From the NCBI GenBank assembly GCA_051942245.1, contig JAVECL010000031.1, positions 1 to 64,000 on the forward strand: DNA of 64,000 nt, in the 5' to 3' direction. Shown here piece by piece: positions 3,158 to 57,385 of this stretch. The position numbers and the translations under genes are program-made. The number at the start of each line of letters is the position of its first letter. The stretch's first letter is position 1. The notes beneath the pieces were generated by a model. That model saw nothing but the letters and a program-made list of their open reading frames with translations. It did no database searches and had not been told where the DNA came from. This DNA comes from Trypethelium eluteriae. Lineage: Eukaryota.

Positions 3158-4156
3158 CTACCAAAGAATCTGAGGGGTCCAGGGCGTCTTTTGCATGCGG
3201 AATGAAGAGCCTAAAGGATCGAGGTACTCCGAGGGTTCTTTCAACTTAGGAATCAAAACGTCGTCAATGATATGAGCGACGCCGCCATAGATGATAAGAT
3301 CTTGCCGCACGATCCGAGCTTGATTGACATATGTCTCTCCGGACTCATCTGTATGGATGTGTACTGATGAGCCTTGTACGGTCTGCAGGGTGCTCTCGCT
3401 CTCGGCCATTGACTCGTGATAGAGAACTTTACCCGGTACGGCGTGGTATTCCAGGATGCTGGCCAGTTGGCTTGGTCTCAGAAGGCCCAACAGTGGGTTG
3501 AGTCTTTCGAATGCCAAATTATGTGGAATGAAGACAGTTACATCTTTCAGACTCTCAAGTAATGTGACAGAGTCTGCAACGTCCATGGCCTCAAGAAACT
3601 CCGACAAATTACCCAGTTGGGCCGTGGTCGAAATGTTGTGGGGCAAAACCATAGATGAGTTCAGTGTGTGAATGATGCCATCATCGAAACGGATGTCCGC
3701 CTCATCTACACCGCCAATGACCTGAAGCCCTGACTCCACGACCATTCCCGTACCCCCGTTCCGAGACAATTTTACGGCTGCGCCCTGGGTGACATTGGTC
3801 AAGATTGGAGGTTGTAGGAAAGAATGTACCACTTGTTTCTCGTTTGAACTTGGGATCGAATCTGCCGTGTATGTACCATCAAGTACGTGATAAGTCAACA
3901 GGGCACGGGCAATAAATGGTTCGACCTCGCTGACGTTAAAGCCCCATTTTGCAAGGGCACGGTAGGCGTCATCGGTAGGGGCAATGAGAGTAATGTTTGA
4001 AAATGAGTCGAAGGATTCCAGGAGGTTGAATTGCTTCAAAAGGTCGTGAAGAATAGAGAGTGAGGGATGCGAGGACAAGGTTGACTTTAGCGATTCAGTC
4101 GCGGCAGTGGAAAGGAAGCTGGCCCCGAAGAATACAACGGCTGCAAGGAGCTGCAT
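3158..4156 (-). CDS. elcF: Secreted fasciclin (FAS1 x2) protein, ElcF/CTB11-like
   Basis: ATG at 4156 followed by a hydrophobic signal (MQLLAAVVFFGASFLSTAATE). Two FAS1 repeats: ITLIAPTDDAY..LLTYHVL..GIIHTLN and VTVFIPHNLAF..ILEYHAV..GVAHIIDDVLIP. Divergent from the laccase gene. Confidence 0.88.
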   Translation of the reverse strand: MQLLAAVVFFGASFLSTAATESLKSTLSSHPSLSILHDLLKQFNLLESFDSFSNITLIAPTDDAYRALAKWGFNVSEVEPFIARALLTYHVLDGTYTADSIPSSNEKQVVHSFLQPPILTNVTQGAAVKLSRNGGTGMVVESGLQVIGGVDEADIRFDDGIIHTLNSSMVLPHNISTTAQLGNLSEFLEAMDVADSVTLLESLKDVTVFIPHNLAFERLNPLLGLLRPSQLASILEYHAVPGKVLYHESMAESESTLQTVQGSSVHIHTDESGETYVNQARIVRQDLIIYGGVAHIIDDVLIPKLKEPSEYLDPLGSSFRMQKTPWTPQILW

Positions 4157-4699
4157 GTTCAATTGAGTCTCTACCTCTTCACTTTTCAAATTGGCCAACG
4201 TATGACGGCTGAGGGCTCTGAGTTCTCAAAAATCTCTCCAGAACGATGCAGCAGGTCTGTACGGTAGTAAATTCTGGGCGTTGACATTGACCTGCAAGCT
4301 ACACAGTTCACTACTCTACCTAACACCGATGGACGCCATAATCTTAGAAGGCCGAAGCTCTTGGACTTGCGGTGTCGCGAATGCATAGGGTGTGAGGTCC
4401 GATAGCTTTGCCGTATCTGCGGCATGAGATGCTTGAATTTGCCCTTCCAGAGGATTTCAAGTTTCCGAGTCGCATCCAGAGTAGTAGTGGTAGAGTGCTC
4501 TGGAAAAGCTCCGACCGCTCTTTCTGACCCCTCATTCGTCAACATCGCGCGACTACAACGCTTTTCGCCTCAACGATGGCTCAAGCTACGACAGGTGGAT
4601 CATAGACAAGGAGTATGGTCCGCCCTACGGGCTTTGTGAGAGAGGGATGACGAGACCGATTGGGCGGTTAATGTCCGAGATATTCGGAAACGGCCGATC

Positions 4700-4710
4700 T
4701 CGCTGACCGG
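4700..4710 (+). promoter_or_regulatory. Putative cluster-1 TF site TCGCTGACCGG (TCGnTGAnCG; AflR-like TCG-N5-CGR)
   Basis: In the fasciclin/laccase divergent promoter. The same core recurs in all cluster-1 biosynthetic promoters. Confidence 0.65.
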
Positions 4711-4872
4711 TGGATGGAGTGTCGCTAGAGTACCGCAAGTTTTTTGTAGAACATGCACAATTGCAAACAAGGGCATGGATAGACCTAAGCTAGGAAGTAA
4801 AGGTCGAATGTGGTAGTATTTTCTTTCTCCTGTCATACTTCACCCTTTTTTTTTCTTGCGGTAAAATTCAGC

Positions 4873-6824
4873 ATGCTTTCTTTGGCGGGTCAAGCATTTC
4901 GTTTTCTTTGCTGTTCTTTGGCATTTCTTCAAAACCGGAACTTTTGCGAAAATTCAGAGCATGCCTTATCGAAGAATGTGGTTCATTTCCAGGTAGACCT
5001 GACCGCTGGAGAAGTAAACCCTACTGGTGCTGGCTTCCGTAAAGTCATCCTCGTCAATGATAGTTTCACCGGCCCTTCTCTACGTTTGAGCGTAGGGGAC
5101 CACGTGGAATTTCTTGTGCGAAATTTCCTACGAGTGGATACTTCGGTTCACTTCCATGGCATAAGTCAAAAGGAATCGCCATGGGCTGATGGGACGCCCG
5201 GGTTGACACAGAAGGAGATCCGGCCCGGAGCTTCGTATCTCTACAAATGGCAGGCTGATCAGCCTGGTGTCTATTTCTATCATGCACACAATAGGGGTCA
5301 AATCATGGACGGATTATACGGAGCGATCATCATTGATGCTCATCCCGAAGCAGAGCGTCCATTCCATCTCATCAGTCGTGACCCTGCTGACCAAAGTGCC
5401 ATGCGCGCAGCGGAGAAAAGGCTACAACCATTGGCAATCTCTGATTGGAGTCAGCTCACGTTCTCTGAGTTCTATAGGGTTGAACGAGAGGCGAATATTG
5501 ACTTCACATGCATGGATGCGATTGTTGTTAATGGGGCCGTAAGTTACAAGTCTAGACCCCAATACAAGCCAAGATATTGATGTCTGACATCCGCTGATAG
5601 GGATCCCAATATTGTCTAGATCGCCAATCCCTCGATGACTTCACCAACCCTCTGGTAAAGGCTATTCTCGCAGCTACTGGCGAAAAGGGCATTACCGACA
5701 AAGGCTGTGTGCCGCCTTTGCAGCTCTTCCAGGGTAATTTCACGCTCAACCTCGATGCGCTCCCGCCCGAGGCCTACAGAAGATGTATTCCAGGCGTTGG
5801 AGGGCAGGGAAACTTCACTGTACATGCACACTCGGGAGAGAAGTGGGCGGCCCTGACCTTCATCAACCCTGGCGGTCTGTACCCTCTCAAGGTGACAATC
5901 GACAATCATCCGCTTCACGTCTATGCCGTCGACGGCCAGTACATTTATCCACAGACCGTGGACCAAATTCTTGTCAACAATGGAAACCGCATTTCGGTAT
6001 TTGTTAAACTTGACCAGGGAGTCGGAAGGTACACTATTAGAATCGCTAACGATCTATTGGGGCAAGTGCTAGGCGGTTTCGCGGCGCTCTCCTACAACGG
6101 AGCGACAGAAGAGCCCGCTGAGAGCCGTCCAATGATGAACTATGCCGGCCAACCGCTTTCGGAAACAATCCGGAAATTCTCCGAGGATACAGCTCGCCCA
6201 TATCCGCCTCTTAGGCCAGCTAGGTCAGCAGATAGGACTCGTAAGTTTTTAGTTAGAAAGCTTGGACGTCCCTATGGATCGTACGAGTGGACGCTCTCAG
6301 GACATCAAGGCTACAATATCAGTGAGGAAGATAGATCACCTCCCGTTCTTTTCCAGGACCCCGACAGATTCAACTCGAGCGAAACTGTTATGAAGACCAA
6401 GAAAAATGAGTGGGTGGATCTAATCCTCGAAGTGGAAGGCCCGTTTGCGCAAGCACACCCGATGCATAAGCATGGTAACAAAGCATTCGTCATTGGTTCT
6501 GGAGTTGGTTCTTTCCCTTGGGCCACTGTCGCTGAAGCGGCAAGAGAGTTGCCACCCAGTACCTTCAACACCGTTGACCCACCTTACAGAGATAGCTTCA
6601 ATACTATCGAAGGGGTAAATAGCAATACCTGGCTAGTTCTGCGGTACAAAGCTGAGAATCCCGGAGCATGGCTCTTCCACTGTCATATCCAGACACATCT
6701 GACCGGAGGTATGGGAGCCATGATACTAGATGCGGTAGATGAGTTTCCTAAGATTCCTCGCGACTATCTAGAATGGAACGGATTCAAAGAGCCAAAGGTG
6801 GCACCCACGGAAGAGGGTACTTGA
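4873..6824 (+). CDS. elcG: Laccase-like multicopper oxidase (phenol-coupling type), ElcG/CTB12-like
   Basis: Exons 4873-5538 and 5601-6824 (GT..AG intron, frame preserved). All four Cu motifs present: VHFHG, FYHAH, HPMHKHG, WLFHCHIQTHLTGGM. Confidence 0.92.
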
Positions 6825-7597
6825 TTCATGGCCTATTTACTATGTGCAAAATTGTCATTATAGATTTAGTGGTTCTCTTCGATCAGAAATTATCAAATTG
6901 CTGACCGTGGATCCCTCTCAACCATCGCTTGATACGCAACTCAAGTATTCACAGAGTACTGGCGTTAGTAGCTAGCCTGATCTCTAGCTTGGGCTGAGAC
7001 TACAGCTCAATGACTGAACCATCGATCACGGGCCGATGGCTACTCCAAAACTATGAATCGCGTTCATCTTCACTGTGACTCCCTGAGTAGAATGAAGATC
7101 TTAAACCTGCTTGGCCGTCAAAGGCCACATTTCACCTCACAATTCTTACTGATCATCTACCAGCAGTCCCGCTTCGTCCCATTGATCTATTCGCTCCCCA
7201 GGTTTCGCTTCTCTTTTGAAACTGCACTCCTTCTTTCTTGACCGCTCGCAATTAACTTTCCGACTAGCACAAATGTGCCTTGTCCAAAGTTGGGATACGG
7301 AATATGTACATAGAGCGAGAAGTTTGAAGGGAGCCTTGTCGCACGTCGGCGGCGGACAATCAACTAAGGTACTCTATGAGGCACGGGTGATAAGGTAGAG
7401 AGTATCGTACCTTAGGAGAGGTAGGTACCGGGCACGGAGTACTCACGCGCATCACGTCACGACACGGAGTACGGAGTGCTCCGTACCCTTAGTAGCTGCC
7501 TAGCAAGGGTGGCACCAGCCTCGGTCGAGAAGCTTGTCCCTTCATCCCATTGCTCCGCACACCATCCACTTGCAAACCCATCCCGGCAACGACATCA

Positions 7598-7608
7598 CCG
7601 GTCATCGA
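7598..7608 (-). promoter_or_regulatory. Putative cluster-1 TF site TCGATGACCGG
   Basis: CCGGTCATCGA on the + strand, ~185 bp upstream of the OMT ATG. Confidence 0.62.
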
Positions 7609-7791
7609 AGTTCGGGAATCGGAAGACATCCAGTGTTCTCGCACGTCAAACAGACCGCAATGGATTGGAATGTGCACAGAATAAGGGACATGGGGCCTTT
7701 CCCAATGGCCAGAAGCTTGACGACCGACATTCCAGATTTAAGCAGTGTGGAAGGATAGTCTCTGTGCATCGCAGTGCGTTGGATTGTCAAC

Positions 7792-9333
7792 ATGCCGGGT
7801 CGAGTCGAAGACCAAGACATATTCGAGCTTGCTGCCACCATTTTGTCATCCACGGTGGATCTCAACAAATTCTTGAGAAAGCGGAAACTACAAGCTCTGT
7901 CGTTCGACAATCCAGCACCAAATGTGTCTTTGTCGCCCGAAAATGCTGCCTTTCATAATGCGAAAAGTACTATTGTCGAGGCTGCAGAGCGCCTCATTGA
8001 TATAGTCCGTGGACCGCGAGATGTGCTTATCGAACTGTCGTTTCAGGTACCTGCCCTCCACTCTTGTTCCTGTTTTGAGAACCGTCGCTCGGTTACTTGC
8101 TCGCCCTTGGATGTAGGCCAACTCGCTAATGTCATGCACAGCATTGCGCTTCTGCATCCTTGCAAGTCATCTTACGATATGGAATTCACCACTCCGTCCC
8201 TCTGAACGGCGCGACCACGTACGCCAAAATCGCAGAAGCTGTGGGCCGAGGCTTGTCCCCAGCATTCATTGAGCGGATCCTACAGCATGCCATGTCATTT
8301 GGCCTCTTCTCCAAAGCGACCTGTGGTCATGTATCACACAATACGGTCTCTTCGCTTTTAGTTACGGATTCGGATCTCGAGGCATGGCTATACCTATGTG
8401 CCAACATCGCTTACCCTGCTGGGGCGCAAATTCCCAAAGCCATCGACCAATATGGAGTCAGCGCAGAAGCCAACGAGACAGCATATAGCGTTTCAATAGG
8501 CCGGAAGATCTCTCAGTTTGAGCACTTTCGCGAACCAGACGGCCATGATGAACACGAAATGTTTGCACGAGCAATGAGAGGCATCTCAGCTGGAGGAGCA
8601 TACGACGTGCGGCATGTTGTGGATGGAGGCTACCCCTGGCATGAGCTCGAGGAGAGAGAAGGGACTCTATGTGTGGATGTCGGTGGAGGACCTGGCCACG
8701 TCTCGATGGCATTGGCTAGGAAATACCCCAAACTACGCTTTGAGGTTCAGGATCTCCCCGAGACTGTAGAAGTCGGGGCCCGAAACTGCCCCGAGGAACT
8801 AAAGGATCGATTTAACTTCCGAGCACATGACTTCTTCAAACTCCAGCCAGAGCATGACGTGTCTAATGGGCAGGCGATTGTGTACTTTGCGAGATTCATA
8901 TTACACGACTGGAGTGACAAATATGCCCGTCAAATATTAGACCCTCTAGCGAAGGGAATGCGAGCGCAGGATCGCTTGATCCTCAACGAAGTCGTTGTTC
9001 CGGAGCCCGGAGAGATGGCTCGCCAAATCGAGAGGAAATGCCAGTACGTATTGGACTCCCCCAGCCGCACTGGCTCGACTCCAAAATTCGTTGCTGACCA
9101 TCATTCTTTTCTTCACTAGTGACCGAGATCTACTTATGCTCATGAATCTCAATGGCCGAGAACGTACTTTGAGTGCGTTCAATGACCTATTCCAAGCAGT
9201 AACTCCGAGACTTCGCGTCTCCAAAGTACATCGGCCACCTCAAGGCGAGCTGTCGCTTATTGAGGTCGTACTAGATGATGATGATGGAACAAAAGTGGAC
9301 TGGAATGCCACAAACGGTATCTCTCATACTTGA
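7792..9333 (+). CDS. elcD: SAM-dependent O-methyltransferase, ElcD/CTB2-like
   Basis: Exons 7792-8046, 8142-9043, 9120-9333. SAM motif VDVGGGPG, catalytic ILHDWSD, C-terminal DLLMLMNLNGRERT. Confidence 0.9.
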
Positions 9334-10220
9334 GCGGGGTATCATACGTGGAAATAGCTCTTCACCCTGGATGTCCTGAATTCGAGCATCAGGCTGCTCG
9401 ATAGCCATTCCGATAGCGTCGTCCTAGGGACAGATGAATATTTGTTTCAATACGTCGACTGTTCTCGGCTTCTCGCGGTCAACTTTACCCTGAGTAGAAA
9501 ATCTCGATTACATGACGGAAATGGGATCCATCAAGTGATTTGATCTAGGAAACTCCAAAACTATACTTCAGTGTTGAAGTCGTAAACTTCTCGAGCTTAA
9601 GAAGTTGATTACTGACAGAAATTTCGGATCAATACTACTACATTTCCTTTTCACAAAGTCAACAAGGGAGCTGAAAAGCTGGACCTGGACCCAAGCAGCG
9701 GGAAGCTTGGTTCATCTACGCAATTAGGACACCACTCAAGGTAAGCAACGAGGTCTCGTAATCATTAGCGTGGCATTACCTGAGACCGTTCTCTGCCGAG
9801 ATGACCAAAATATTGGTTCCATCAAGCGCAGTGTAAACAGATCTTATCTCTATTAGAGTATCCTGGTCTTAATAATCGGGCCGGAATGTGGAAGAGCTCA
9901 CGGCAGTACGCAAAAGCCTCCAGGAATTACCACCATCCTCTCTGGTCTAGCAAAGTCTCGATTTGCCGATCTTCGACCAATAGCCATCAACGCTTTGTGA
10001 AACTTTGCCATCCGCTTCCAGAACCCGTTGTGCACTAGCATTGCAAAGGTAAAGCGACCAAAGTAATCTGATGGTGCGCCTCGGCCTTCGGGCCCACCCG
10101 CGGCTAAGTAGAGTACAGAGACACTGCCGTACGATACACGTCTTGTCGCAACGTGACGCTACGGATAAGCTGTTTTGCGTCTAGCCGGTGGAGAGGATGA
10201 CACTTTGACGAGGACTCAAG

Positions 10221-10250
10221 GATCGTGATCATGATCATGATCATGATCAT
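10221..10250. repeat. (GATCAT)n hexamer microsatellite, self-complementary
   Basis: GATCGT followed by four perfect GATCAT units. Confidence 0.8.
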
Positions 10251-10963
10251 GACCCTGGGGCCGGTCAGCCAAATGTGAAGTAATGCCAGTATCGAGTCAA
10301 CGCCGCCTGCTTGACAGTGTAGGACTTAGAGAAGATTACGTATCTTACATGAAACGTCTACGAGGATACCTGAGCTGTGCAACTGTTGCGGAATATCTGA
10401 GCCTAGGCCTCATTCGGTGCGAGGATAGACAAGTCAGGCAAGACCAAGTGGCCCAAGTGCGGGGCGATACGGGGAGCTCTGCTACGGACGCCAACTGAAA
10501 GAAGGCCGATTCGCACCTCCAAATTCCCAATCTTCTGGGTCTTGAGGCACCGGCACTTTCTCCCACTTGAGGACTTGCCCTTTTGCCAAGATGATATCTA
10601 AGCTCCACGGTGCCTCTTGCTTCGTGATTGGACTGATGGCCGGGGTCACCTCCGAAGGCGAGCTCCCGACCATCGCCGTCTACCTGTGGCCTTGTTCTGC
10701 CCAGCTAAGGCCAGCGGATTGACTCCGGGAGGACGACCATGTCAACAAGCTGGCAGCCGTATAAGTGCCACTGCGGGCTACTATGTGCATTGCCGTCTTT
10801 GGGAGGAATCGCGAAAGACGATGTCGTGCCTTGCTTGAACTTCAGAGCTTAAACCGTGGCCCTACAAGCCTTTCCCGGTCCTTCTTTTTTCCTACCAAAC
10901 TTGGGAGTTACAATTGTTCTCTAACCCGACTGCTGGATGAACATGATTCGCTAGCAAGCTGAG

Positions 10964-12280
10964 ATGGCCAGCCGAAATCACAGGGATGGCGAGCACCGGC
11001 GAAAAATCCGAGAATCATGCAATAGCTGCAGTTCCCAGAAAATCCGCTGTGGCAAGCAGCGCCCCAGCTGCGCTCGCTGTGTTGCCAAAGGCCTGCAGTG
11101 CAATTACAGCTATTCCCAGCGAACTGGACGACGGGCGCCATCTTCAAACACATCGAGATCGAATTCCACCACGATGGCTTCCATTGCACCGCCAGTCACT
11201 CCGATGGCATGTGAACCTGACCCATTGGTTGGGGTCAGATCTGCGTCCATGACGCCTCCGATTCCACCCTTGGCTATCCATGGCGTTGATGCATTCTCCC
11301 TTGATCCAGTTCAAGACAGCTCGACGAATGCTTTCGATGATACCGAAGACGTCTTCCAGGATTTCGGCTCGACCCTGCCGCTGGATCTCTTGTGGTCACC
11401 AACAACGGACGTGACTACAACGTGCAGCAATCTTATCAACAGCACCGGAACGGCGGGTCCGGCCCACACTGCCGGCTCTTTACCTCCATATCCACAGTCG
11501 TACAACAAATGGCAGAGCCTGCAAACCCCTGCTTCTACCGCTGTACCGGAATCATTTAGCACGACTTCAGAGTTTGCTCAAGAACCAAGGACAGAGCATG
11601 AGAGACCGCCGCCAGAGCCTTACCATAGTGGTCAGGACTGCATGGCCCTAGCTCTACAAGTTGTGTATGACCTGCACGTTCCGCGAGAGCACTGCAGAAC
11701 GGCCGCCTCCTCAGACCCTATGACATGCATACAGACGTTCAAAGATGAGCCGCGAGACGTCGATTCGGTTTTGTTTCTGAACCGCGATGCCATCAAGTCG
11801 GTCAACAAGATCCTGGGCTGTCCATGTTCGGCGGATCGTAGTGTTGCCTTGGCCTGTTACCTTGCAGCCGCCAAGATAATAGAGTGGTATGGTGCGGCCA
11901 TAGGTATTTCCGTGGATGCTTCACGCGACGATGGCCACGAGAATGGTGCCAATGGCTTCCTCGACGACGAAGTTAAGCTACGACCCATGTCGGATCGAAT
12001 TATCTCGCGACCAATTTTTATGGGTAGATATTGTCTGGATGCGGAGGTACATCGTTCTGTCCGCGCCAAAGTTGTTCTCAGTGAACTCAGAGAGCACATT
12101 CAGCCTCTGATGAGCCGCTTACCCAGATATCACATTTCGCAAGCAAGCGGCAAAGGAGCGAAGCACGGAGCTCCTGTTGCCTCGCCTTTCTCTAAAGATA
12201 ATGACAATTCATCCTGCATGCTTCGAAACCAGGTGAGAAAAATAATTCGTGAGGCTAGCAACATCAACAAACACCTATAA
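10964..12280 (+). CDS. elcR: AflR-type Zn2Cys6 pathway-specific transcription factor, ElcR/CTB8-like
   Basis: RKIRESCNSCSSQKIRCGKQRPSCARCVAKGLQCNY. AflR-like C-terminal region (VDSVLFLNRDAIKSVNKILGCPCS..KIIEWY..AKVVLSELR). Single 438-aa ORF in the middle of the cluster. Confidence 0.9.
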   Translation: MASRNHRDGEHRRKIRESCNSCSSQKIRCGKQRPSCARCVAKGLQCNYSYSQRTGRRAPSSNTSRSNSTTMASIAPPVTPMACEPDPLVGVRSASMTPPIPPLAIHGVDAFSLDPVQDSSTNAFDDTEDVFQDFGSTLPLDLLWSPTTDVTTTCSNLINSTGTAGPAHTAGSLPPYPQSYNKWQSLQTPASTAVPESFSTTSEFAQEPRTEHERPPPEPYHSGQDCMALALQVVYDLHVPREHCRTAASSDPMTCIQTFKDEPRDVDSVLFLNRDAIKSVNKILGCPCSADRSVALACYLAAAKIIEWYGAAIGISVDASRDDGHENGANGFLDDEVKLRPMSDRIISRPIFMGRYCLDAEVHRSVRAKVVLSELREHIQPLMSRLPRYHISQASGKGAKHGAPVASPFSKDNDNSSCMLRNQVRKIIREASNINKHL

Positions 12281-12950
12281 ACTCTTGGGCGACTCACAGC
12301 CAGGGCATTCGGTGCCCTTCGTGAATAGGAGGCCTCCAGGTACTCAGTTTGGCGCTTGGAATCACGGATCGAGCTCTCCTCTTCGACTCAGAAAGAGGTT
12401 CTCGAAGCATGGACAGCGGTATTCTCCGATTTTCTAGCCGTATGGCGCTCACCGACGCTTACGCAGTCGCACGTGCAAGGAGGTCATTATGGGTGGACCA
12501 TTTCTCGGAAGGAGTCGTTCTTGGAATACCCCAATACCCCCGCTTCTGGGTGGAGCTACAGTACAGCACATATTTTGTAGGAAGATTTGATAACTGCCAT
12601 GGCCCGGGGTAGACGGATCTGAGGATCACGTAATAGACTATCGGAAAATGGAGTAACTGATGTTCGGTAGCAACGCCTATCCAGGTTGCGTCATCAGTGT
12701 GGTTATAACTAATAAGTTTGCAATTTATCTATCAGCAATCGCAGTGAAATGACTCTGCTCTTGACTTCTGCCTCTAAGAACATGGTGTAGTAAGACGAGG
12801 TACCAGACTAGTTGCATTACGGACCTGCTAACCTGTAGAGTCTTGTCCATTGTCAAAACACGTGCTCCCCGATGCGCTGAGTACGGAACAAAGTTGGCTG
12901 AAGCCGAAACCCGAAGCTTTCGGACTTGATTTGCCATATGGCAGCACCAG

Positions 12951-12960
12951 CGGTCACCGA
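12951..12960 (-). promoter_or_regulatory. Putative cluster-1 TF site TCGGTGACCG
   Basis: CGGTCACCGA on the + strand, ~190 bp upstream of the FMO ATG. A second copy CGCTCACCGA lies at 12446-12455. Confidence 0.6.
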
Positions 12961-13148
12961 GATGTGTTATGGGTACACCACTACCGGCGATTCTGCTCTT
13001 CTCGTCATCAAACGCTCTTCTGTTAAGCTGACGTGCAACCAGATCAGCCCAAGTACCACCCTCCTCAATGCAAAGAGGCACACAGTCAGCCATTTCTTGC
13101 GTGTGAGTTCAATCATCGGAGTGAGTGCGCACGATATCATTTCGAACC

Positions 13149-14762: not shown

Positions 14763-15426
14763 CTGCTTTCCTACCATTGGCCACGCATCAAAAAGTGTTG
14801 CGGAATTTCACATCGTCGCTAACACAGACAAGATTACTTATGCAGTACGGCGTCATGGTAGGAGATTGGAACTATAGTACTCGGAAATGGCTCAAGCTAG
14901 GTCGCAATTGGTCTAAGCTCATGCCAGGCCTTCGTTTGCATCCTAATATTGACATTTTGTCTTGCGGTCAATTGCATTCCATGGTCAGTTGGCATTGATG
15001 GTATTTACTCTTACAGACACTCGTGCTGCGGCTGGTGCCAAGTCTGTCCGGACTTGGAGCCAAACTTGGAAATTTAAATACCTCTTGTATCTTCGAACCC
15101 GACCTCAGAAGATTTGATAATATGCTTTTCACTGCGGCCACAGGAGAATTGCCAAGTATTCACGCTCAGTAAAAGGGCAATGGGAGTTTCCACTTCGAAG
15201 TAGTATTCATCAATAAAAGGTATCGTCGTAGAGAGCAATGCGAGAAGATTCGGTATTTCAAGTGGAATTAAATAAATACTTGACTGTGTTGACGATTGAA
15301 CGCCGAAACGAACAATGATCGCTGTTCTGCTTGCATCTTTATAGATGATGACCGCCTTTAGCCCCTTCAGTCACAAACATCAGACAGTAATCTCCTTGAT
15401 CATCCCTTTGCAGTCGTCAGCTAGGC

Positions 15427-17553: not shown

Positions 17554-17564
17554 TCGGTGAGCGA
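17554..17564 (+). promoter_or_regulatory. Putative cluster-1 TF site TCGGTGAGCGA
   Basis: In the BBE/MFS divergent promoter. A related TCGGGGAGCGA lies at 17535-17545. Confidence 0.65.
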
Positions 17565-45200: not shown

Positions 45201-48200
45201 TATCTTACACAACTACCGCTCGCCGCATGCATCATAACTACCGAGTTTTCGTCTCAGGATCCGATGCCACTTCTATCTCCTCGGCTCTCAAGTCCCGGGC
45301 CTTGGAAAGCGAAACAACACCTATCAAGCCTATCTCAAACGCCCCGAAGAAGTCACCCCGCGTCGTATTTGTATTTACTGGCCAGGGAACTCTTTACGCG
45401 GAGCTGGGAAGATTGCTCTTTGATACTAATGCAGCTTTCCGCAGCAGGATTCACCAACTCAACCGTCTCGCGCAAAGCCAGGGCTTTCCAGGCTTCCTCG
45501 GTCTGATTGACGGATCTGTCGCCAACCTTCAGGTTGTTGGAGCGGTTGTGTCACAGCTTGTGCACGTATGCATCCAGATCGCACTCTCTGAACTCTGGAA
45601 GAGTTGGGGTGTCGAGCCTGCTGCCGTAATTGGTCATAGCTTGGGCGAGTATGCAGCCCTCTATGCCGCAGGCGTGCTCAGCGTTGCTGATACCATTTAC
45701 CTTGTGGGCACGAGGGCGGTCCTTCTGGAAAAGCGATGCACGGCTGGTACCCATGCCATGCTTGCCATCAAAGGCTCGCAGGAGGCTGTGCTTGAGATGA
45801 TCCACAAGAGTTCTGAAGGCGAGACCGACAGGAAGAAGAATTGTGAGTTGGCTTGTGCAAATCAGCCTACAGGTCACGTCGTTGCGGGGCCCGTTGATAA
45901 GATATCTAAGGTCGCTCGTGCGGCTGCAGATGTCAACATTGAGACGGTGCGGCTCGATGTTCCTTTTGCATTCCACTCGGCTCAGGTAGAGCCCATCCTC
46001 TCCGAGTTCGAACAGGCTGCGGCGCAAGGAGTGGTTTACCATCCCCCAACCGTGCCTGTTCTCTCACCACTACTGGCAAAACTTGTGCCCGTAGGTGACA
46101 GCACTACACTCAATGCTTCATACCTTACTGCTGCATGTCGAAACATGGTAGACTTCAAAGGTGCTGTTTCTGCCGCTGTCTTGGCAGATGATGCCCTAGC
46201 CGCGGCTGATCGTACCATCTGGCTCGAGATTGGACCCCACCCTGCCTGCAGTGGTATGGTCAAGGGTACACTCGGCTCGCACTCAAAGACGGTTCCAACG
46301 CTGCGCAAGCAAGTCGATGCATACAAAACGTTGGCAACAGCCCTTGAGATGCTCTATCTTTCTGGTATTGAACTTGATTGGAATGAGTATCACCGCGACT
46401 TCCCCACTGCACAAGAGGTACTTGACCTTCCGATGTATGCATGGGATTCGAACACATACTGGATTCAATATCGCAACGACTTCTGTCTAACGAAAGGAGA
46501 CGACATGATGCCACTTGCTCTTGAGGCGCCCGTTCCGGAGCGCAAGCCGGTGGGCAAGTATATTTCGCCATGTGCGCAACAGGTCGTTGAAGAGTTCCAC
46601 GGTGCGGAGGAATCCTCGCTCATTGTCGAATCTGATATCTTCGATGAGAAATTGCTGCCAGTCCTTGCCGGCCATTTGGTGAACGGGGCCCGCTTGTGTC
46701 CATCTGTAAGTCTCATTCTGAAATGCCTCCTCGATATCCGTGGATATTTACTGACGCTTCTGCGACCACACTTAGTCCATGTACGCCGATCTTGTCTTGA
46801 CTATGGCAAAATATATGGTGCTCGAAAGCCCTAACAAGCTCCCAATCGCTACCACTGGCCTTGAGGTATTTAATGTCAGGATCGACAACCCCCTCATTGC
46901 TCGGACTACCGAAACTACTCACCGATTCCGTGCCTCGGCCACGGTAGAATGGCATACCAATGTCATTTCCTTTTCCATCTTCAGCGTCGATGGCTCCGGA
47001 AAACGTACCGCCTCCCACGCGAAACTTGATGTACGTATTACTCCTGAACAACATTGGTCCGACGAGTGGAAGCGCAACACGCATCTCATCACATCACGCA
47101 TCGAGGCGCTGGCTGAAAGCAAGGAGAGCCACACCATCAAACGTGGAATGGCGTACAAGATATTTGGCGCCCTGGTTGAGTATGGCAGTGAGTATCAAGG
47201 CATGGCAGAGGTTGTCATGGACAGCAAGCGTCTAGAAGCGTATTCGACGGTCCAATTCCAGGTTGGACAGCAGGGATTCCTGGTTAATCCAAAGTGGATT
47301 GATAGCGTTGGAGGCGTGGCTGGCTTCATCATGAACGCCAACGATGCTGTCGACAGCCGGACGCAGGTGTTTATTAATCACGGATGGGAGAGAATGCGGA
47401 TTGCAGAACCACTTGAAGAAGGCAAAACCTATCGGGCGTACAATCGCATGCAGTTGGTTGAGAAGACGACCTACGCTGGGGATACATACATTCTAGAGGG
47501 CGACCGGATCGTGGCTATCTTCGAGGGCGTGACGGTATGTTTTCTTGAATTTCCCTTGTCTGTGCTTGTTATATGAACGCTTTCTTCCTCGCTGGCGATG
47601 ACATGTGGATGTTTTACTGACCTATCCCTAGTTCCAAGGCGTCCCTCGTCGTGCACTTGATCACCTTCTCCCGGGCAAGACAAGTCCAGCGAGTGCAAGA
47701 CCGGTCCCACCGAGTCAACCAGCTCCACAGGTTCAGGCAAAGGCAGCAGCACCGAAACCCAAAAGCCACGTATCTGCACCCGCGCTGCAGCCAAAAACCA
47801 AAACTGCAGAAACATCATCCGGTGTTCTTGGCCGAATTCTGGCTCTCATTGGCGAAGAGATCGGCGTTACACAATCCGAACTTAAGCCAGAGGTTGATTT
47901 CATGGAACTGGGAATCGACTCGCTGCTCTCACTGACGATCACGGGAAAGATACGCGAAGAGCTCGGGTTGGAATTTCCTACTTCACTCTTCATTGATCAC
48001 CCAACCGTTGGAGATCTACGAGCTTTGATCGGTGGTGGAGGCGATGGCTTGGTCGTATCGGGCTCCAGCTCCAGTAGCGATGACGAGAGTGAGGAAACAC
48101 AACTTACTAGTGCTTCAGGTGAACAGGATCCACAAGTCCAGGATGATTCTTCCAGTCGCACTCGTGCTGCCCTCATCTTGAGGCAAATCATTTCCGAGGA

Positions 48201-49383
48201 AACTCGCGTTGGCATTGATGAGCTGACAGCATCGACAAGTCTTGTCGACATTGGGGTGGACTCTCTACTGAGCTTGACCATTACCGGAAAATTGCAGGAG
48301 CTCTTGAACGTGGACATTCCTTCGAGCACTTTCATGGAGTGCGACTCTCTGCAGGAAATCGAGGATGCTGTATGCAAGGAACTTGGGCTCCCAAAAGTGA
48401 CCGCGAAGAAGCCTGAGCCAGCCAAGAGCCATCCTGCGACATCGAACACACTAGCAAACTGTAACGGGCCAAACCCACAGATCCGATCATCGCAGCAAAG
48501 CAGTCAAAGTCAGGATACCGCCGATTCTTCCCTCCCGCAAGCAAGCTCGATCTTGCTCTCAGGCTCGCCACAAACTGCCCGACTGATCGTCTTCCTCTTC
48601 CCTGACGGCTCTGGTTCAGCGTCTTCGTACGCTGCGCTAGCACCCGCTATTGATACCAGCAGCATCGCCGTCTACGGATTAAACTGCCCATGGCGCAAGA
48701 GCGGAGCCGAGATGACTCGCCTGGGCCTCACAATGTCCACGATGGTCTCGAGATATGTGGCTGAGGTAAGACGACTTGTACAACAAACCACAAAAGCACG
48801 AGGGAAAGCCATTCCCGTTGCCGTAGGTGGATGGTCAGCCGGGGGCATTCTGGCTGTCGAAGCCATACGACAATTGCAACAGCACCAAGACGGCGACCAA
48901 ATGATAAAAGTTAGCCAGTTACTCCTTTTCGATTCTCCCAACCCAATCGGCCTACAGAATCCGCCTCAACGAATGTACGATTTCTTCGACACATTAGGCA
49001 TCTTTGGCGGTGGTGGCGGCGATAAGGCTAAATCTAAGACGCCCGAGTGGCTTCGTCAGCATTTTGATGCGTTCCTTCGCATCTTGGACGATTACGAGCC
49101 AACTCCTCTTCCCGATGCACCGGCTTCACTAATTGTGTACGCGAAAGATGGAGTGTGCAAGGACCCTAACGGGCCGAAGATGGAGACGCGGCCAGACGAT
49201 CCTCGGGAGATGCTGTGGCTGTTGAACAACAGGACAGACTTCTCGGCGGAAGGCTGGGCGAGTGTCTTGGGTCGGGGGAAGCTGAATGTGAAGGTATTGG
49301 AGGAGGTTAATCATTTTACTCTTATGGACCCGGGGCCAAAGATGAAAGAGGCGGGTCATATTGTCACGAAATTTCTTTCTTAG
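42285..49383 (+). CDS. Second non-reducing PKS SAT-KS-AT-PT-ACP-ACP-TE, probably PhnA-like
   Basis: Multi-exon. [45 protein letters not shown], ACPs LGIDSLL and IGVDSLL, TE GGWSAGG..NHFTLM. The PhnA-like assignment is inferred from neighbouring genes. Confidence 0.92.
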
Positions 49384-51337: not shown

Positions 51338-54202
51338 TCAGGAAACTCCTGACCTATAATGGGTATCCTCGTCTTGGTCTCGACTCCCTTCTGTCCGTGG
51401 TCTCTTTCTCCACCGCGTCGTCGTACGCTCTGGCACACTCTGCGCCTGTTGCTGCAGCTGCACGTCTGCCTGTCCTTGGCTCCCATCCCACATAGCAGGA
51501 CTCGACGTTCCCATTTGGTTCAAGAATTGCGAGATGTCGAATGGGGTATCCGGAATCGTGGGTGTTGGGGCGATGGATGAGGTGTTTGACGAATTATTTG
51601 TGTTCGCCATTGATGCTGCTGAAGACCACACCGAATCTGTTGGCAGAGTCCATGAAGATCTCGAAGATGGGGGAGCTAGACCGAGGTTGAATGGAGAGAC
51701 GCCGCTGTTGTAGAGGTTGAGATTTGGCAAGCCCATGGCATTTGACGAGGCATCGAGGAGCATCGGAGAGGTCTGGGCAAGTAGCGGCTCCGACGTGTAC
51801 ACATCGCCGTCACCAGTAGCATCGGCAAGGCTTGTATCGGTCGGACCAACGATCGCACGGATGATATCCACGAGATGCTGCGTGATCCGGCCAACTCGAG
51901 TGCCATAGGCATCCATCCTTCCACGCGTTGAGGTCGGCGGTGGTGCATTCCGGAAGCAGAGAAGCAGGGCTTCAAGCAATGAGATGTCTTCATTGATTTC
52001 TTGCTGTCCCTCATCGTTCTGAGATGCAGGTGATGTAGATGGTGACTTTGTGCCACCCGATCCTATACCGAGAATGTGCTTTGCAAGCACGAAGAGTGCT
52101 GCAGTGGGGAATACGCTTGTGAGTCGGTGAAGTGGCAGTGGCGCCGAGATCGGGGCCTGACCGAGACTGGAGCTCGCGGGTGTCAAAGGTGCAGTCCGCT
52201 GCATCGGGTCGGTAATAGATGAAGGTGACGAGGCGGAAGATGATTGCGGTCGGACTTCTGGGGATGTGAAAGCTGAGGTGCTGAGCAGGCGATCTAATCG
52301 CTCTGTCAATGCCTCATTCAGATGATGGTAGCAGGATGTAGCCACAAGAAGACAGCTAAGGCGGGCATCATATAAGACTTGTGCAGGGATGGGGCAAGCT
52401 CCATCACTGGAGCTGTCAGTATTTAATGCTCGGATGCGCGTGCCAAGGAAAGACAGATGCAGTGAGACTTCGTCCACGGTGCTGGGTCTAGTAGATGAGG
52501 GAATTTTGTGTGTTTGTGACCATGCTTTCAATTTCTGCTGCAAGCGGGCGAGCGCAATCGGTCGTTCAGCCGTAGAAACTTCAATTGTACTTGTAGGGCA
52601 GAGCAGGCCATGAAATTGATCCTGCATCTTGGCCAGCTCCCAATGAGGTGCGTGAGCGTGAGGCTGGCTCGACAGGGCTCCCTGAGCCTGTGTAGCAGAG
52701 GTGGTGGCTGGACGACCTTCGGAGTAGTCGTTAGGAAGCCAGCTGAGCGCTCCAGATGCTGTAGTTGAGTACCTGTCTCGAATGTAGAGGGACCTGAACA
52801 CTTTGAGTCGCTCGTCTGTCTCGCCGGCTGAAAGATTCGAAGGGGCAAATCCGTAGCCTGCCTGCTGTAGACCCGTGGTTTTTGCCAGCATGCACGCCTG
52901 GGCGAACATGGAGTCGCCGAGAGTTTCATTATGATATTGCTGTGCGAGGAGGCTCTAAAGGACAATCAACGGCGTTAGTTAAGTTCCACAAACGATAGTG
53001 CCAAGTCAAGTGAGATCGGCCATGGCAAGACGGTCGGTAAACTTACGAGAAGAGCCAAGGCCTGCACGTTGACGAGGCGTTGGGACATAAAGAAACTTGG
53101 CTTCCTCGCAGCAACGTGTGCTGCCTGGAGAATGGGTCGCACGAAGGGGTCGTCGCTATGGACTGGATGCTCAGCACCAAGCGTAAGGAGGATTATGAGA
53201 TTAAAGCATAAGGCCCACGGTTCGGATGTAGGGCTGGATGGGTCTTTGTAGACGCGTTCGACTGCCTCGTAGACGCTTTCGCGAGAGAAGATATCTGTGG
53301 CGTAGTCGGCTTGTTTGAGGAAACTGTCCAACATGACGGAGAGAAATTGTCTAGGCGGTAAGCAGATGGTATCCTGCTGTCCTAGTCTGGACCCGAAGTC
53401 CAGGCTGTTGTCGGTCCCTGTATCGAGCAGCATCTTGTTAAGCAGACCGCCAACGACCTCGACATGGTTGCCAACATGCGAGCTCAAGTCGGCTGCAAAG
53501 TCGCGACATAGTGCGACGGGCGTCCATGGGCCATGGTATCTTTCAATCAGCGTGTCGCCGTCTCGAACAACATGGCCAGGGGTGGTGGGCGGGGTGGTCA
53601 AAGGTACTTTGTCGTCGAAGTTGTTTGGAACTCGGTCTACTGATGCGGATTCCCCCTCAACGTCGAGCTTCCGCCGTTCGCCAATATTCGACTCCTTGAA
53701 CATAGCCGTCAAAGAAGACAATTCCCCCTGCATTGTGATCAGGCGATCTTGAATGTCGTCGAAATTCTGGCATCTGCACATCATCCACGTGAGACATTTG
53801 CCGACGTCATACTCCGATGGTAGAGTCAGATTCACTTACAGCACTTTGACATGGTTCACTCTCTTGGGAGGTGAGGAGTAGACGCATTCGACTTGATCGC
53901 GGTAACAGCTGCTGCATTGTGGCTTTTCCCTCCTACATCGGATCTTGCGGGTGCGGCAGCTGTTGCAAGCGCCATCGTGGGCTGTCCAGTTCTAGAGACA
54001 GAGCACGTTAGCATTTTCTTTGTCGACCTCAACATCGAGTGCCCTCTTGCATACGATGGCTAGCGCTTGGGGTGTGCTCTTTTCGAGACTTGATTCCCGG
54101 GGTGCTTGGTTGTCGATCGACACGACACCCCACTGAGATCGGTCGTCCCTGGGCAGACCCAGGCTTTCCAAAACATGGGTTGGCCAATGGAGAGCCTTTC
54201 AT
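51338..54202 (-). CDS. Zn2Cys6 transcription factor with fungal-specific TF domain (cluster-2 regulator); 5' end uncertain
   Basis: An exon at ~53990-53840 (absent from the ORF track) encodes HDGACNSCRTRKIRCRREKPQCSSCYRDQVECVY. It splices to ORFs 52975..53835 and 51338..52909 (NVQALALL..FAQACMLAKTTGL..ERLKVFRSLYIRDR). The start ATG is tentative. Confidence 0.82.
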
Positions 54203-55673
54203 CCTTTGACAGACGTCTACTGAGGATGGTTGACGTGACCATCGCATGGCAGAGTGGACTTTTCTTTGCGCAGTATTGGAGAGACAGAGAGTGTGTAGCA
54301 CGGGTACGAGGAGCGGTGGGACTGACTGAATCACTTGCCTCTTTCTTGGACGTGCCCGCCATCGAACTCTAATAGCGGATGTGGGTCTCCTTGCTCATAG
54401 GCCTGGTCGTTGCTTGACTTAGGTCTTCCCCAGTCTGCTCGTCGGGTTGCTCAATTGCGGATCAAGCTGAGGGTTCGCGGGGTCGACGGCAGCATTAAAC
54501 AGCAACGATGGTCACACAGCAATACAGATTCGAAAGAGTATTTGAGCTTAACAATGCACATTAGGAAGTCTGCCCGCCTTATCAACATTGGCTGCCCACG
54601 TTTACGACCCAGGCTGACTGACTAAGGCTTCCTGCCGCATGGACATCGCATTTCGTACCGTCACCCTCGTGGGAGTGAGACAACGCCACCAACAATAAGA
54701 AACGAGCCCGAAATGGGATCAACGATTGAGCGGAGAGGGTCCAAGCGTCAGACTCTCGTCCATGCAGGGTCTGGTGGATCCGGTCAGACGGTGGGCACGC
54801 ACGCATGGACCCATGGTATGGTGGAGCGGGTGGAGTGGGTGGCTTTTTTGCAGAGCAGAGTAAGATGACGCCATGCTAGTGCGATGAGTAGCGTACCCTC
54901 CCAGACGGGACAGTGGAACCATAGGAGCGGTCAACGACCTGGAGCTGGATCTGCCAGGTGGGACCCTAGAAGCTGCGGAGGTGAGCCAGAGTCAGAGCGC
55001 GAGCCAGCATCAGAGTCAGAGCCAATGCCAGAATCAGACCCTGATCCGGACGAGAGCTGCGTCGGCCGCCTAAATTTGGAAAATGGCCCACCATATTTGA
55101 GTCGCGTAGATGATGATGAATCGGTGTATCTAATCTCTTCTCCAAACAGAGACATTTAGCCTAAATTTCTGGGCCAGTGAGGAAGATGAGAAATGCGTGA
55201 AATGCGTGAGATTCGTGAAATATCTACCTAGGTAGGAGAATCGCCCAACTGCTCATTATAGAGACCATATCGTACACTTACTATAGGATGGTGATAACAC
55301 CCAAAATTGGTACCTTGAGATGAATGTAATTTCCTTCTCAGTCTTCACCAAAATAGCCTCTCGAGCAGTGCATTTGTGCGCAGGTGTGTTTTCACCGGTG
55401 CCCAGTTGAGCGGGTATCACCCGAGCATCGTACTCCATAGGTACTCTAGAATATAGTATTTCCCAGTTGAGAAGGTAGAGCTCATCGCACATGGTTATCA
55501 CGTTTCTTTCTTTTATTTGCTTTTTCTCTCTTTTTTTTTTTTTTTTCCTTTTTTTTCGAAAAGCAGCACTACACACACACGGAATCTCGCGAGCGCGTGC
55601 ATCTACGGGCTGATGTCGGCAAACACGCACCTACGATTTATCTGAAGGCGAAGTGAGAAGCACGGTGCGAGAT

Positions 55674-55799
55674 CGGCGGCCGAAAGCCGACTTGCGCCCT
55701 GCACTGGCGGACGTTGGGACGGCTGGTAGCACATATCGTGGGAATATTAAGTAAGACTCCCAGGCTTCCTTTCAGCCCCCAACCGGGTCCCGAAAACCG
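55674..55799 (+). promoter_or_regulatory. Two putative cluster-2 TF sites CGG-N3-CCG-N4-CCG
   Basis: CGGcggCCGaaagCCG (55674-55689) and CGGgtcCCGaaaaCCG (55784-55799) upstream of the prenyltransferase. Confidence 0.65.
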
Positions 55800-55990
55800 A
55801 AAATGGTTTCAATATTGTAGATGACAGGATCGTTAAAAAGTTACGGTTCGTCTCCATGAGAATGTACCTTCTCTGTGAATCAGGTAGAGTTGAAGAAGAG
55901 CTTTCCTCACCTGGTTTTACGAAAGAATACCCCAATTTCTGATTTTTCTCTCTCTCGACCTTATACAACTCCCACAGTCAGGTAGCAAAG

Positions 55991-57385
55991 ATGGCGGTTG
56001 CGGCCCAGTCCCCAATCTTCCAGTCCATGGAGTCAGAGACTTCAAAGTCTAGGGCCGTGGACATGGCCAGTACGTCGCAAGGTCTGCCGTACTGGTGGAG
56101 TACCAGTGGACGCGATCTTGCCAACATGCTTCACGAGGCCAATTACCCCGAGGAAGTTCAACGTCACTTCTTGAGCTACTATCGAGATATCATTTGCCCC
56201 CGACTGGGAGGCCAGCCTGGCGAGGATTCTGTCAAGAGCGGGGTGGGCTGGGATGGGAACCCATTGGAATATAGCTTTGAGCTGAAAGGCACGACCAAGA
56301 CCCAGGCTGTTCGTTTCGTCGTTGATCTCACCCAGCTCCGCCCAGCGGACAGGAGCAGTCCTCTGAGCATGGACACCACGCAAAAAGTGGTGGACATGAT
56401 GGCAGACAAGGCACCGGGATTTGATGAGAACTGGAGCAAGTCGCTGCAGCGATGGTTCGTCTATGACCACCTATCTGAGGACGAACAAAAGGCCTTGATC
56501 GCCAAGGCAGGACAACAGACTTCTGTCATCCTGGGTTTCGACATATTCAAACGCGTTGCTGGCCCCGATGGGCTGCCGGTCATGGCCAAAGTCTACTACC
56601 CTCCCTGCTACACTGCCGCAGCCAAAGGAATTACCCGTTGGCAAGCCGTCCGTCAAGGTATCCAGCAACTTCCAGGCGTTAGCTCCTATCCCAACATCCT
56701 GAAGTCAACCGAGATCATCAACGACTACCTGTCTGACAAACCCAGAGAATGGCAGATGGGCACCCGGTACTTGGCCACTGACCTCGTTGGTCCGGAAAAG
56801 GCGCGCATGAAGGTGTACATGCGCTGCTTTGGACGGACCTTCGATGACATCTGGGACTACTACACCCTTGGCGGCCGAATCACCGGTGTCGAGGAAGATA
56901 AGGAGAAGTTCCGGGACATGATGAATTTCGTAAGCGGCACAAACAACTATGATGCAGAGATCTCCAAGCAGGACCCGCTGGACGAGACCCGATACCGATC
57001 GGCAACTGGCAAATTGACGGCCATTTACTTCTCAATCTCGGCCGACAACCCCATTCCGGCCCCCAAACTCTGCATCTACCCTGCCAACTTCGCACCCAAT
57101 GACGAAGTCATTGCCAAGGGACTGGATAAGTGGTTGACCAAATATGGGTGGCACCATGAAGGGGCCTCCATGGAGGAACAAGTGAAGAGAGTCTTGTACG
57201 TGCTTTCCCGCTAATCTGATTCGAGTGACGCTTCTAATCAAGGAAATAGTGACCATCGCCCACTGGGAAAGAAGACAGGTATTTTCACTTTCATCGGCAT
57301 CGGAAGGAAGGAGGATCCAACCAGCAAGGATCTGAGTATCCAAGTCTACGTGACCCCTGAGCTTTATGAGACCCCGCGGTACTAG
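55991..57385 (+). CDS. phnF: DMATS/ABBA-family aromatic prenyltransferase, PhnF-like
   Basis: Exons 55991-57195 and 57250-57385. YWWSTSGRDLANMLHEANY, WDGNPLEYSFE, AKVYY, LATDL..ARMKVY, YYTLGGR, PKLCIY..ND, IQVYVTPE. Confidence 0.85.

Follow-up and report, generated by a model that had tools for sequence, protein, structure and literature searches.

Two adjacent pigment gene clusters in Trypethelium eluteriae, one perylenequinone-type and one phenalenone-type, are probably separate units

We analysed a stretch of 64,000 nucleotides from Trypethelium eluteriae (GenBank assembly GCA_051942245.1, contig JAVECL010000031.1, positions 1 to 64,000 of the forward strand; hereafter the window), a fungal locus that holds two blocks of secondary-metabolism genes. 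Domain calls were taken from a Pfam scan of stop-to-stop open reading frames (ORFs). Cluster 1 spans 3161-31779 and cluster 2 spans 33852-57214; both are contiguous, they are not interleaved, and their 3' ends face each other. Each contains a non-reducing polyketide synthase (NR-PKS), with the identical domain order SAT-KS-AT-PT(PS-DH)-ACPx2-TE at 24701-31776 (+) and 42276-49380 (+), and each has a separate gene for a Zn2Cys6 regulator. In tblastn alignments with full-length relatives, both NR-PKS genes (PKS1 and PKS2) are collinear and open, and several of their exons are 100% identical to proteins of Viridothelium virens; on PKS identity the window matches this lichen-forming dothideomycete of the Trypetheliaceae exactly or almost exactly. 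A sequence-only reading of this DNA had described two full NR-PKS loci with their own regulators about 2.07 kb apart, and this description holds, the spacer (31780-33851) being exactly 2,072 nt long. We conclude, with a probability of about 0.68, that these are two separate and self-contained pigment clusters, one for an elsinochrome/hypocrellin-type perylenequinone and one of herqueinone type, and that their real, lineage-specific adjacency is most likely a neutral neighbourhood and not a functional unit.

The genes of cluster 1 are as follows.

3161-4225, minus strand: fasciclin-domain protein (ElcF/CTB11 counterpart); Pfam Fasciclin at E 2.7e-37 in two stretches, first Met at 4156.
4801-6821, plus strand: laccase-like multicopper oxidase of at least two exons (ElcG/CTB12 counterpart); Cu-oxidase_3 at E 2.5e-32, Cu-oxidase_2 at E 1.6e-27 and Cu-oxidase at E 6.1e-12, in ORFs 4801-5577 and 5601-6821.
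7425-9116, plus strand: O-methyltransferase (OMT; ElcD/CTB2 counterpart); Methyltransf_2 at E 1.4e-16 in ORF 8130-9116, 5' exons approximate.
10964-12280, plus strand: Zn2Cys6 regulator with AflR domain (ElcR/CTB8 counterpart); AflR at E 4.4e-21, Zn_clus at E 6.2e-8, Cys6 motif at 11018-11101, first Met at 10964.
13518-14759, plus strand: probable FAD monooxygenase, a weak call (candidate ElcH counterpart); FAD_binding_3 at E 0.0012 in ORF 14187-14759, exon structure approximate.
15430-16794, minus strand: FAD-linked BBE-like oxidase (ElcE/CTB5 counterpart); FAD_binding_4 at E 1.7e-6 in ORF 16555-16794, 5' end approximate.
18826-20471, plus strand: MFS transporter of several exons (ElcC counterpart); MFS_1 at E 8.9e-6 (ORF 18826-19137) and 1.4e-5 (19348-19977), both under the Pfam cut-off.
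21057-23525, minus strand: fused OMT and FAD monooxygenase (ElcB/CTB3 counterpart); Methyltransf_2 at E 3.1e-30 and FAD_binding_3 at E 1.5e-19 in a single 823-aa ORF.
24764-31779, plus strand: PKS1, SAT-KS-AT-PT-ACP-ACP-TE, ElcA/CTB1 clade (Pfam); stop codon at 31777-31779.

A protein search with a 1292-aa ORF of PKS1 as query gave identities of 97% to Viridothelium virens, 89% to Trypethelium subeluteriae, 77% to Bathelium mastoideum and 74% to Bogoriella megaspora within the Trypetheliales, and beyond them 67% to Shiraia, 64-65% to Sphaceloma/Elsinoe, 65% to an elcA-like protein of Parastagonospora nodorum and ~58% to Cercospora CTB1. The best solved relative is CTB1 (6fij, 1451 bits), compared with 1066 bits for norsolorinic acid synthase. 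In a quick-search LG+G4 tree (49 rows, 766 columns; support from the Shimodaira-Hasegawa-like approximate likelihood ratio test, SH-aLRT, only), PKS1 falls in a Trypetheliales branch of the ElcA/Shiraia/Elsinoe/P. nodorum clade (SH-aLRT 99); the CTB1 clade is sister to it, and the joint group has an SH-aLRT of 100. Beside this ElcA/CTB1-clade NR-PKS, cluster 1 holds the fusion of OMT and FAD-dependent monooxygenase (FMO), a separate OMT with canonical VDVGGGPG and ILHDWSD motifs, a coupling trio of laccase, BBE-like oxidase and fasciclin protein (the BBE-like call being the weakest), and a cluster regulator together with an MFS transporter (MFS_1 at E ~1e-5, under the Pfam cut-off). No Pfam match was obtained for the 317-aa ORF at 15430-16380 (minus strand), on the same strand as the BBE-like oxidase. 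Gene set and tree placement together bear out the sequence-only assignment of cluster 1 to the perylenequinone clusters of the elc/CTB kind. In the pathway we propose, PKS1 would make a naphthol monomer, which the OMT-FMO fusion and the separate OMT would tailor and of which the laccase, the BBE-like oxidase and the fasciclin protein would join two; the MFS pump and the AflR-type regulator would round off the set.

Cluster 1 is already reported for V. virens. In the available parts of the respective papers, the elc cluster of P. nodorum (PMC6354827) and the cluster of V. virens and Bathelium mastoideum (PMC12074606) have the same parts, elcA-H and elcR, the ElcH-like FMO being only a possible counterpart in our case. 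Gene order in cluster 1 is unlike that in P. nodorum, as PMC12074606 states for V. virens too, where, as in Bathelium mastoideum, eight core perylenequinone genes are present in an order unlike that of P. nodorum. The same source, citing Mathey and Lukins 2001, has perylenequinones present in lichens of the family Trypetheliaceae.

Cluster 2, a new instance of the known phn type, comprises seven genes.

33852-34384, minus strand: DUF3237 protein of 136 aa in 3 exons, candidate PhnH-like hydroalkoxylase; Pfam DUF3237 in each half, at E 3.1e-8 and 8.1e-8.
35187-36856, plus strand: FMO of ~6 exons (PhnB role, by type); GAGITG and GDAAH motifs, weak FAD_binding_3 at E 9.2e-4.
38160-39831, plus strand: OMT-fold protein in 5 exons, open frame, degenerate methyltransferase motifs; Dimerisation at E 1e-4, Methyltransf_2 at E 4.5e-9.
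40219-40703, minus strand: EthD-domain protein of ~140 aa in 2 exons, divergent from PKS2; Pfam EthD at E 2.2e-10, ATG at 40703.
42285-49383, plus strand: PKS2, SAT-KS-AT-PT-ACP-ACP-TE, PhnA clade (Pfam, tblastn, tree).
51341-53967, minus strand: Zn2Cys6 regulator; the Cys6 motif (53884-53967) is followed on this strand by ORFs 52978-53835 and 51341-52954.
55991-57214, plus strand: DMATS-type aromatic prenyltransferase (PhnF role, by type); Trp_DMAT at E 2.9e-75 over profile positions 4-355 of 357.

For PKS2, a single 816-aa ORF served as query against proteins of 1429-4080 aa, and 120 matches were listed. It is 98% identical to a V. virens protein (P0241) and 95% identical to that of T. subeluteriae, and PhnA of Penicillium herquei stands at rank 16 among the 120 matches listed, with 64% identity over 94% of the query. 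By tblastn, PhnA is collinear with PKS2 over all six exons (42285-42602, 42662-44083, 44124-44324, 44393-46753, 46755-47534 and 47632-49380), at 54-93% identity per exon. The tree places PKS2 with PhnA in a 17-row clade (SH-aLRT 99), separate from the alb1/wA-type PKSs, and its nearest relatives outside the family are from Lentithecium and Lophiostoma, including L. macrostomum (97). A Fusarium falciforme row lies outside this clade; we assume that it is of the type of PKS35, a Fusarium synthase taken up below.

The smaller genes of cluster 2 were assigned by their domains and solved relatives. PhnH is a DUF3237 enzyme of ~150 aa that carries out an intramolecular hydroalkoxylation, according to the available part of PMC11969235, and the DUF3237 product of cluster 2 has 136 aa. 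Its main exon, exon 2, has PhnH as its best solved relative (6jjs, E 9.4e-14), and exon 1 finds PhnH at E 0.0017, in second place after 4pux. The adjoining FMO gene is open with six exons placed, starts at the ATG at 35187 and has its GAGITG Rossmann motif split across exons 1 and 2. Solved relatives of the DMATS include GliD1 (E 6.2e-22) and DMATS1 (E 5e-21), and its Atlas matches, at 0.95, are generic aromatic prenyltransferase clusters. The EthD gene and PKS2 have a common promoter region, and the only solved relatives of the EthD protein at E<=1 are six CTB10 sequences (best 9iwu, E 7.7e-10). CTB10 is a helper for the methylenedioxy bridge of cercosporin, and the Pfam scan of ORFs found no CTB9-like dioxygenase in the window. 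In the regulator gene, a stop codon lies 8 codons upstream of the Zn2Cys6 motif without an in-frame Met between them, so the start codon must lie in a further upstream exon; its ORFs 52978-53835 and 51341-52954 have no Pfam match. All genes of cluster 2 are open in frame with introns placed, and no transporter was found by Pfam among the cluster-2 ORFs scanned. The PhnA-clade PKS, the FMO, the DMATS and the PhnH-like DUF3237 protein thus support what the sequence-only reading had taken cluster 2 to be, a cluster of the prenylated-phenalenone (phn) type.

The phn cluster of Penicillium herquei has in common with cluster 2 a PhnA-clade NR-PKS of the same domain order, an FMO, a DMATS-type enzyme, a DUF3237/PhnH-like protein, an OMT-fold protein and a regulator. 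Cluster 2 differs in that it shows a single FMO, whereas herqueinone formation presumably takes a second one, PhnG; in its EthD/CTB10-like gene; in an OMT-fold protein with SGKTG and LWN instead of GxGxG and LHD; and in its host, a lichenised dothideomycete. In the parts of the literature available to us, phnA and the FAD hydroxylase gene phnB suffice for the phenalenone core (PMC8727740), and the trimethyl-dihydrofuran ring arises by O-prenylation, Claisen rearrangement and cyclisation (PMC9608606). Sclerodin and many trypethelones have been obtained from mycobiont cultures of Trypethelium eluteriae, and sclerodin from Lophiostoma bipolare (PMC9608606), which makes cluster 2 a natural candidate for such chemistry. 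In our proposal, PKS2 would supply a heptaketide prephenalenone, the FMO would close it to phenalenone and the DMATS would O-prenylate the product; once a Claisen rearrangement had taken place, closure of the trimethyl-dihydrofuran ring would fall to the PhnH-like DUF3237 protein. Further tailoring may be the work of the OMT-fold and EthD proteins, perhaps with oxidative carbon loss towards pigments of the sclerodin/trypethelone type.

It may be instead that cluster 2 makes no phenalenone, and that PKS2 yields another heptaketide or naphthopyrone-type aromatic, for example a fruit-body wall pigment, with the DMATS, DUF3237 and OMT-fold proteins engaged in other chemistry. The 64% identity to PhnA is below orthologue-level certainty, the clade includes uncharacterised PKSs and has inner branches with SH-aLRT 83-90, the single FMO is linked to PhnB by type only, and the OMT-fold protein is without canonical motifs. 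Further to that, the PKS35 (PKSN) cluster of Fusarium neocosmosporiellum, a phn-like cluster outside Penicillium with five phn homologues, shows that clusters of this type can colour fruit bodies, as it gives a red perithecial pigment, whose structure is unknown according to the available part of the report (PMC6568001); the figure-legend key there names no prenyltransferase, whereas cluster 2 has the DMATS. We nevertheless consider a non-phenalenone product unlikely. Within 24 kb, the PhnA-clade PKS is accompanied by an FAD monooxygenase, a DMATS and a PhnH-like DUF3237 protein, a combination that matches the pathway logic (PMC8727740, PMC11969235, PMC9608606), PhnH is the sole enzyme besides Fur21 reported for the ring closure in the available part of PMC11969235, and relatives in Trypetheliaceae and Lophiostoma yield prenylated phenalenone derivatives (PMC9608606).

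The cluster-2 gene for which we depart from the sequence-only reading is that for the OMT-fold protein, said there to be no intact OMT: the frame proved open, and the doubt lives on in a different shape, in the motifs. Alignment with P0362 and P0367, both full-length relatives, shows the in-frame stops near 38871-38903 to be intronic, and the gene is therefore intact. Gaps relative to the same two proteins place the exons at 38160-38665, 38767-38859, ~38946-39030, 39088-~39674 and ~39754-39831, with introns at 38666-38766, 38860-~38945, 39031-39087 and ~39675-39753. The methyltransferase motifs are degenerate: motif I for binding S-adenosylmethionine (SAM) reads LIEVSGKTG, with SGKTG for GxGxG, and the LHD motif with the catalytic His reads LWN (VLWNLPD). 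Retained are the D of EVQD and the DLF motif, both of which we take to be SAM-binding motifs. This pattern is common among relatives. Among the best 100 representatives in a whole-library search, GxGxG is missing in 60 of the 79 rows that cover motif I, and the second motif most often reads LWN (38 rows). The OMT-fold protein sits in a sizeable fungal subfamily without the usual methyltransferase residues (xGKTG, LWN), for which a non-methylating role is possible. Its best solved relatives, at weak E-values, are HpiI (7bqo), then GedA and LepI; of these, LepI is an OMT-fold pericyclase with retro-Claisen activity, according to the available part of PMC11969235. The closest full-length relative is P0362 of Metarhizium acridum. 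Both P0362 and the PhnA-clade PKS P0262 of M. acridum are on a contig of 82,870 bp, and from this same-sized contig we take it that the OMT-fold gene travels with the PhnA-type PKS.

The two clusters are joined by a short stretch of non-coding DNA.

31780-33851, no strand: spacer of 2,072 nt, on which PKS1 and the PhnH-like gene converge with their 3' ends.

None of the 5 ORFs of at least 70 aa that overlap 31780-33825 has a Pfam match, no repeats were found in the spacer, and the DNA is somewhat AT-richer here (GC 0.448 in 32001-34000). A rival account takes the adjacency for an artefact of assembly that joined two unlinked loci; nothing was found that speaks for it. A second set of contigs (X1, a DNA run of ~36 Mb, made with a different assembler) has a contig of 41,678 nt that covers 26000-41653 unbroken across the spacer, with 23 differing letters and 6 gaps. 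X1 may come from the same or a closely related sample and therefore supports the assembly, not an independent strain. In V. virens, P0122 (relative of PKS1) and P0241 (relative of PKS2) are each on a contig of 163,984 bp, and the spacer has no repeats able to mislead an assembler. An artefact is therefore barely credible, and the adjacency put forward in the sequence-only reading is genuine. Differences in length were also noted: X1 has 5 additional letters in the spacer (at 32673), and a further run, X2, has 7 additional letters at 34459, 75 bases upstream of the start codon of the PhnH-like gene.

X2 is presumed to be RNA; its contigs are of low depth (2-5) and 97.6-99.5% alike to the window. 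They contain four GT..AG joints in gene orientation, two in the DUF3237 gene (introns 33861-33909 and 34154-34226) and two in the FMO gene (introns 35686-35806 and 36107-36180), and one piece lies on PKS2 at 45211-45456; they leave uncovered PKS1 (26000-31779), the OMT-fold gene and the EthD gene. This indicates that three genes of cluster 2 are transcribed, two of which (PhnH-like and FMO) are seen spliced.

The sequence-only reading went further and suggested that the two clusters may form a co-inherited 'phototoxin island', in a juxtaposition that it did not know to have been described. The island is not supported by comparison with relatives, for which we used hit tables with protein-length limits (contigs and locus tags), not synteny maps. 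The T. subeluteriae orthologues of PKS1 and PKS2 (89% and 95%) are on different contigs, one of 767,193 bp (locus tag Q9165_001783) and one of 133,615 bp (Q9165_007574); the tags are ~5,800 apart. Bathelium and Bogoriella each have a PKS1 orthologue, and no PKS2 orthologue was found for either among the matches listed, where a 51% paralogue is the only entry for Bogoriella and Bathelium has none. In these tables the adjacency is thus not kept in related species, which argues against a conserved island. Trypetheliaceae have ~70 clusters per genome, according to the available part of PMC12711211; with ~36 Mb, random placement would give, as a rough inference, ~0.7 pairs of clusters within 5 kb of each other per genome. 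Clusters that lie side by side have been described before, and neutral neighbourhoods of this sort are common where fungal genomes are rich in clusters. As to novelty, the perylenequinone half has been published (PMC12074606), so the claim stands for the other half only: the available part of that paper makes no mention of a phn-type neighbour of the V. virens perylenequinone cluster. In the limited literature collection at our disposal, we found no paper on a phn-type cluster in a lichen, nor on a perylenequinone cluster beside a phenalenone cluster.

The one hint of a regulatory link between the clusters, and a weak one, is a heptamer.

4312-55448, no strand: TAGAGTA heptamer, candidate cis-element, 17 dispersed copies.

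The heptamer was reached post hoc from a search of ~26,000 gapped triplet pairs. Twelve copies lie in 4312-24233 and the others at 33092 (in the spacer), 37490, 37499, 49992 and 55442; the total of 17 is about four times that in shuffled sequence (3.96 +/- 2.0), and none of 100 shuffles reached it. Eleven copies fall in five of the six promoter regions of cluster 1 (7.4 kb), a number not reached in 2000 simulations, and 3 copies in two of the four promoter regions of cluster 2, where 36 of 2000 simulations reached 3. Elsewhere, there are 2 copies in other non-coding DNA and a single one in 44.5 kb of gene bodies. No copy is present in the PKS2/EthD and PhnH-like/FMO promoter regions. Judged by this distribution, TAGAGTA makes a good cis-element candidate for cluster 1 with a weak link to cluster 2, and a putative site for the cluster regulator or a light-response factor; alternatively, it may be a promoter word used throughout the species. 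For the AflR-type site TCGN5CGA, the window shows no enrichment (13 copies, 16.6 expected). A palindrome guessed from enriched words, AGAGTACTCT, was rejected, with 1 match compared with 1.85 expected.

Several points weigh against the conclusion that the two clusters are separate and self-contained. In cluster 1, Pfam scores are weak for the ElcH-like, BBE-like and MFS genes. In cluster 2, the FMO, DMATS and OMT-fold proteins were assigned to PhnB, PhnF and PhnC roles by enzyme type, not by orthology, and the phn-type product is a candidate assignment from sequence. A genome bin of T. eluteriae has no PKS2 orthologue among the 120 matches listed (proteins of 1429-4080 aa), its only row there being P0326, at 53% and in a different clade of the tree. 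X1 may not be independent of the source of the window, and the T. subeluteriae assembly is metagenome-derived, so that different contigs are no proof of distance. Finally, in cluster 2 two copies of TAGAGTA lie upstream of the OMT-fold gene and one upstream of the DMATS/regulator pair, and the EthD protein is related to CTB10, a cercosporin-pathway protein, which fits some coupling between the clusters.

These last two observations could also be read as signs of a functional supercluster, co-regulated by light or a common cis-element, for instance, and exchanging enzymes or intermediates: the DMATS or the OMT-fold protein would act on cluster-1 naphthols, the cluster-1 MFS transporter would export both pigments, and the EthD protein would act on the perylenequinone. 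The physical adjacency is confirmed, TAGAGTA is strong in the cluster-1 promoters, CTB10 sequences are the only solved relatives of the EthD protein, and cluster 2 shows no transporter among the ORFs scanned. Co-regulated cases exist as well, in the partial accounts available to us, among them fumagillin/pseurotin and a three-cluster case. In the fumagillin/pseurotin supercluster of Aspergillus fumigatus, several clusters likewise share one chromosome stretch; there, however, the genes are intertwined and regulation is shared, whereas our window has separate convergent blocks with their own regulators, in an adjacency not seen in the nearest sequenced relative in the hit tables.

We regard a functional supercluster as distinctly improbable. 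Genes are not interleaved and promoters are not common to the two blocks, which lie tail to tail; as they meet 3' to 3', they have no promoter in common. A regulator of its own is present in each, and the T. subeluteriae orthologues are on separate contigs. TAGAGTA is missing from the PKS2/EthD and PhnH-like/FMO promoter regions, was chosen post hoc among ~26,000 gapped words and could be a general promoter word, and TCGN5CGA is not enriched. The EthD argument is countered by the lack of CTB10 in elc-type clusters in Table 2 of PMC12074606, as far as that source was available, and of a CTB9-like dioxygenase in the window. As for the suggestion that cluster 2 could borrow from cluster 1, the phn-type counterparts are already in cluster 2, which therefore has no need to do so; in the available part of PMC6354827, moreover, the elc laccase requires its cognate BBE-like oxidase and functions only with it, which argues against the lending of a laccase to cluster 2. 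The lending of the cluster-1 OMT with canonical motifs is pure speculation.

A bolder extension of our reading would make cluster 2 the as yet unassigned sclerodin/trypethelone pathway of the Trypetheliaceae. The OMT-fold protein, its catalytic His and glycine-rich SAM loop lost, would have ceased to be a methyltransferase and would be the pericyclase that the route lacks, catalysing the aromatic Claisen shift after O-prenylation by the DMATS and before PhnH-type closure; the EthD protein would be responsible for the oxidative carbon loss, and the OMT-fold and DMATS genes would be under the cluster-1 element TAGAGTA so that both pigments switch on together. Taken as a whole, this is a long shot.

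For lichen chemistry, cluster 2 is a concrete transcribed candidate for the prenylated phenalenone-derived pigments (sclerodin, trypethelones) of the Trypetheliaceae. The genetics of lichen fungi is hard, so heterologous expression of the defined seven-gene set is a practical route. The idea of a shared 'phototoxin island' is corrected, as each pathway seems to be independent of the other, and the perylenequinone one is in print. Two side leads are the heptamer that marks the cluster-1 promoters and the OMT-fold subfamily without the usual methyltransferase residues.

Both flanks of the locus carry further genes. Left of the fasciclin gene, outside 3158-57385, a gene at 872-2755 (+) encodes another Zn2Cys6 regulator, the third, which has a Fungal_trans domain. 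The right border, 600 bp beyond the DMATS, is marked by an apparently intact DDE (pogo/Tc5-like) transposon of 1,864 bp at 57818-59681 (+), with 59-nt terminal inverted repeats that are 97% complementary and an unbroken 570-aa ORF (DDE_1 at E 1e-34, HTH_psq). Past the transposon, a gene at 61620-63998 (+) that combines AAA ATPase, AAA lid and HET (heterokaryon incompatibility) domains runs off the end of the window.

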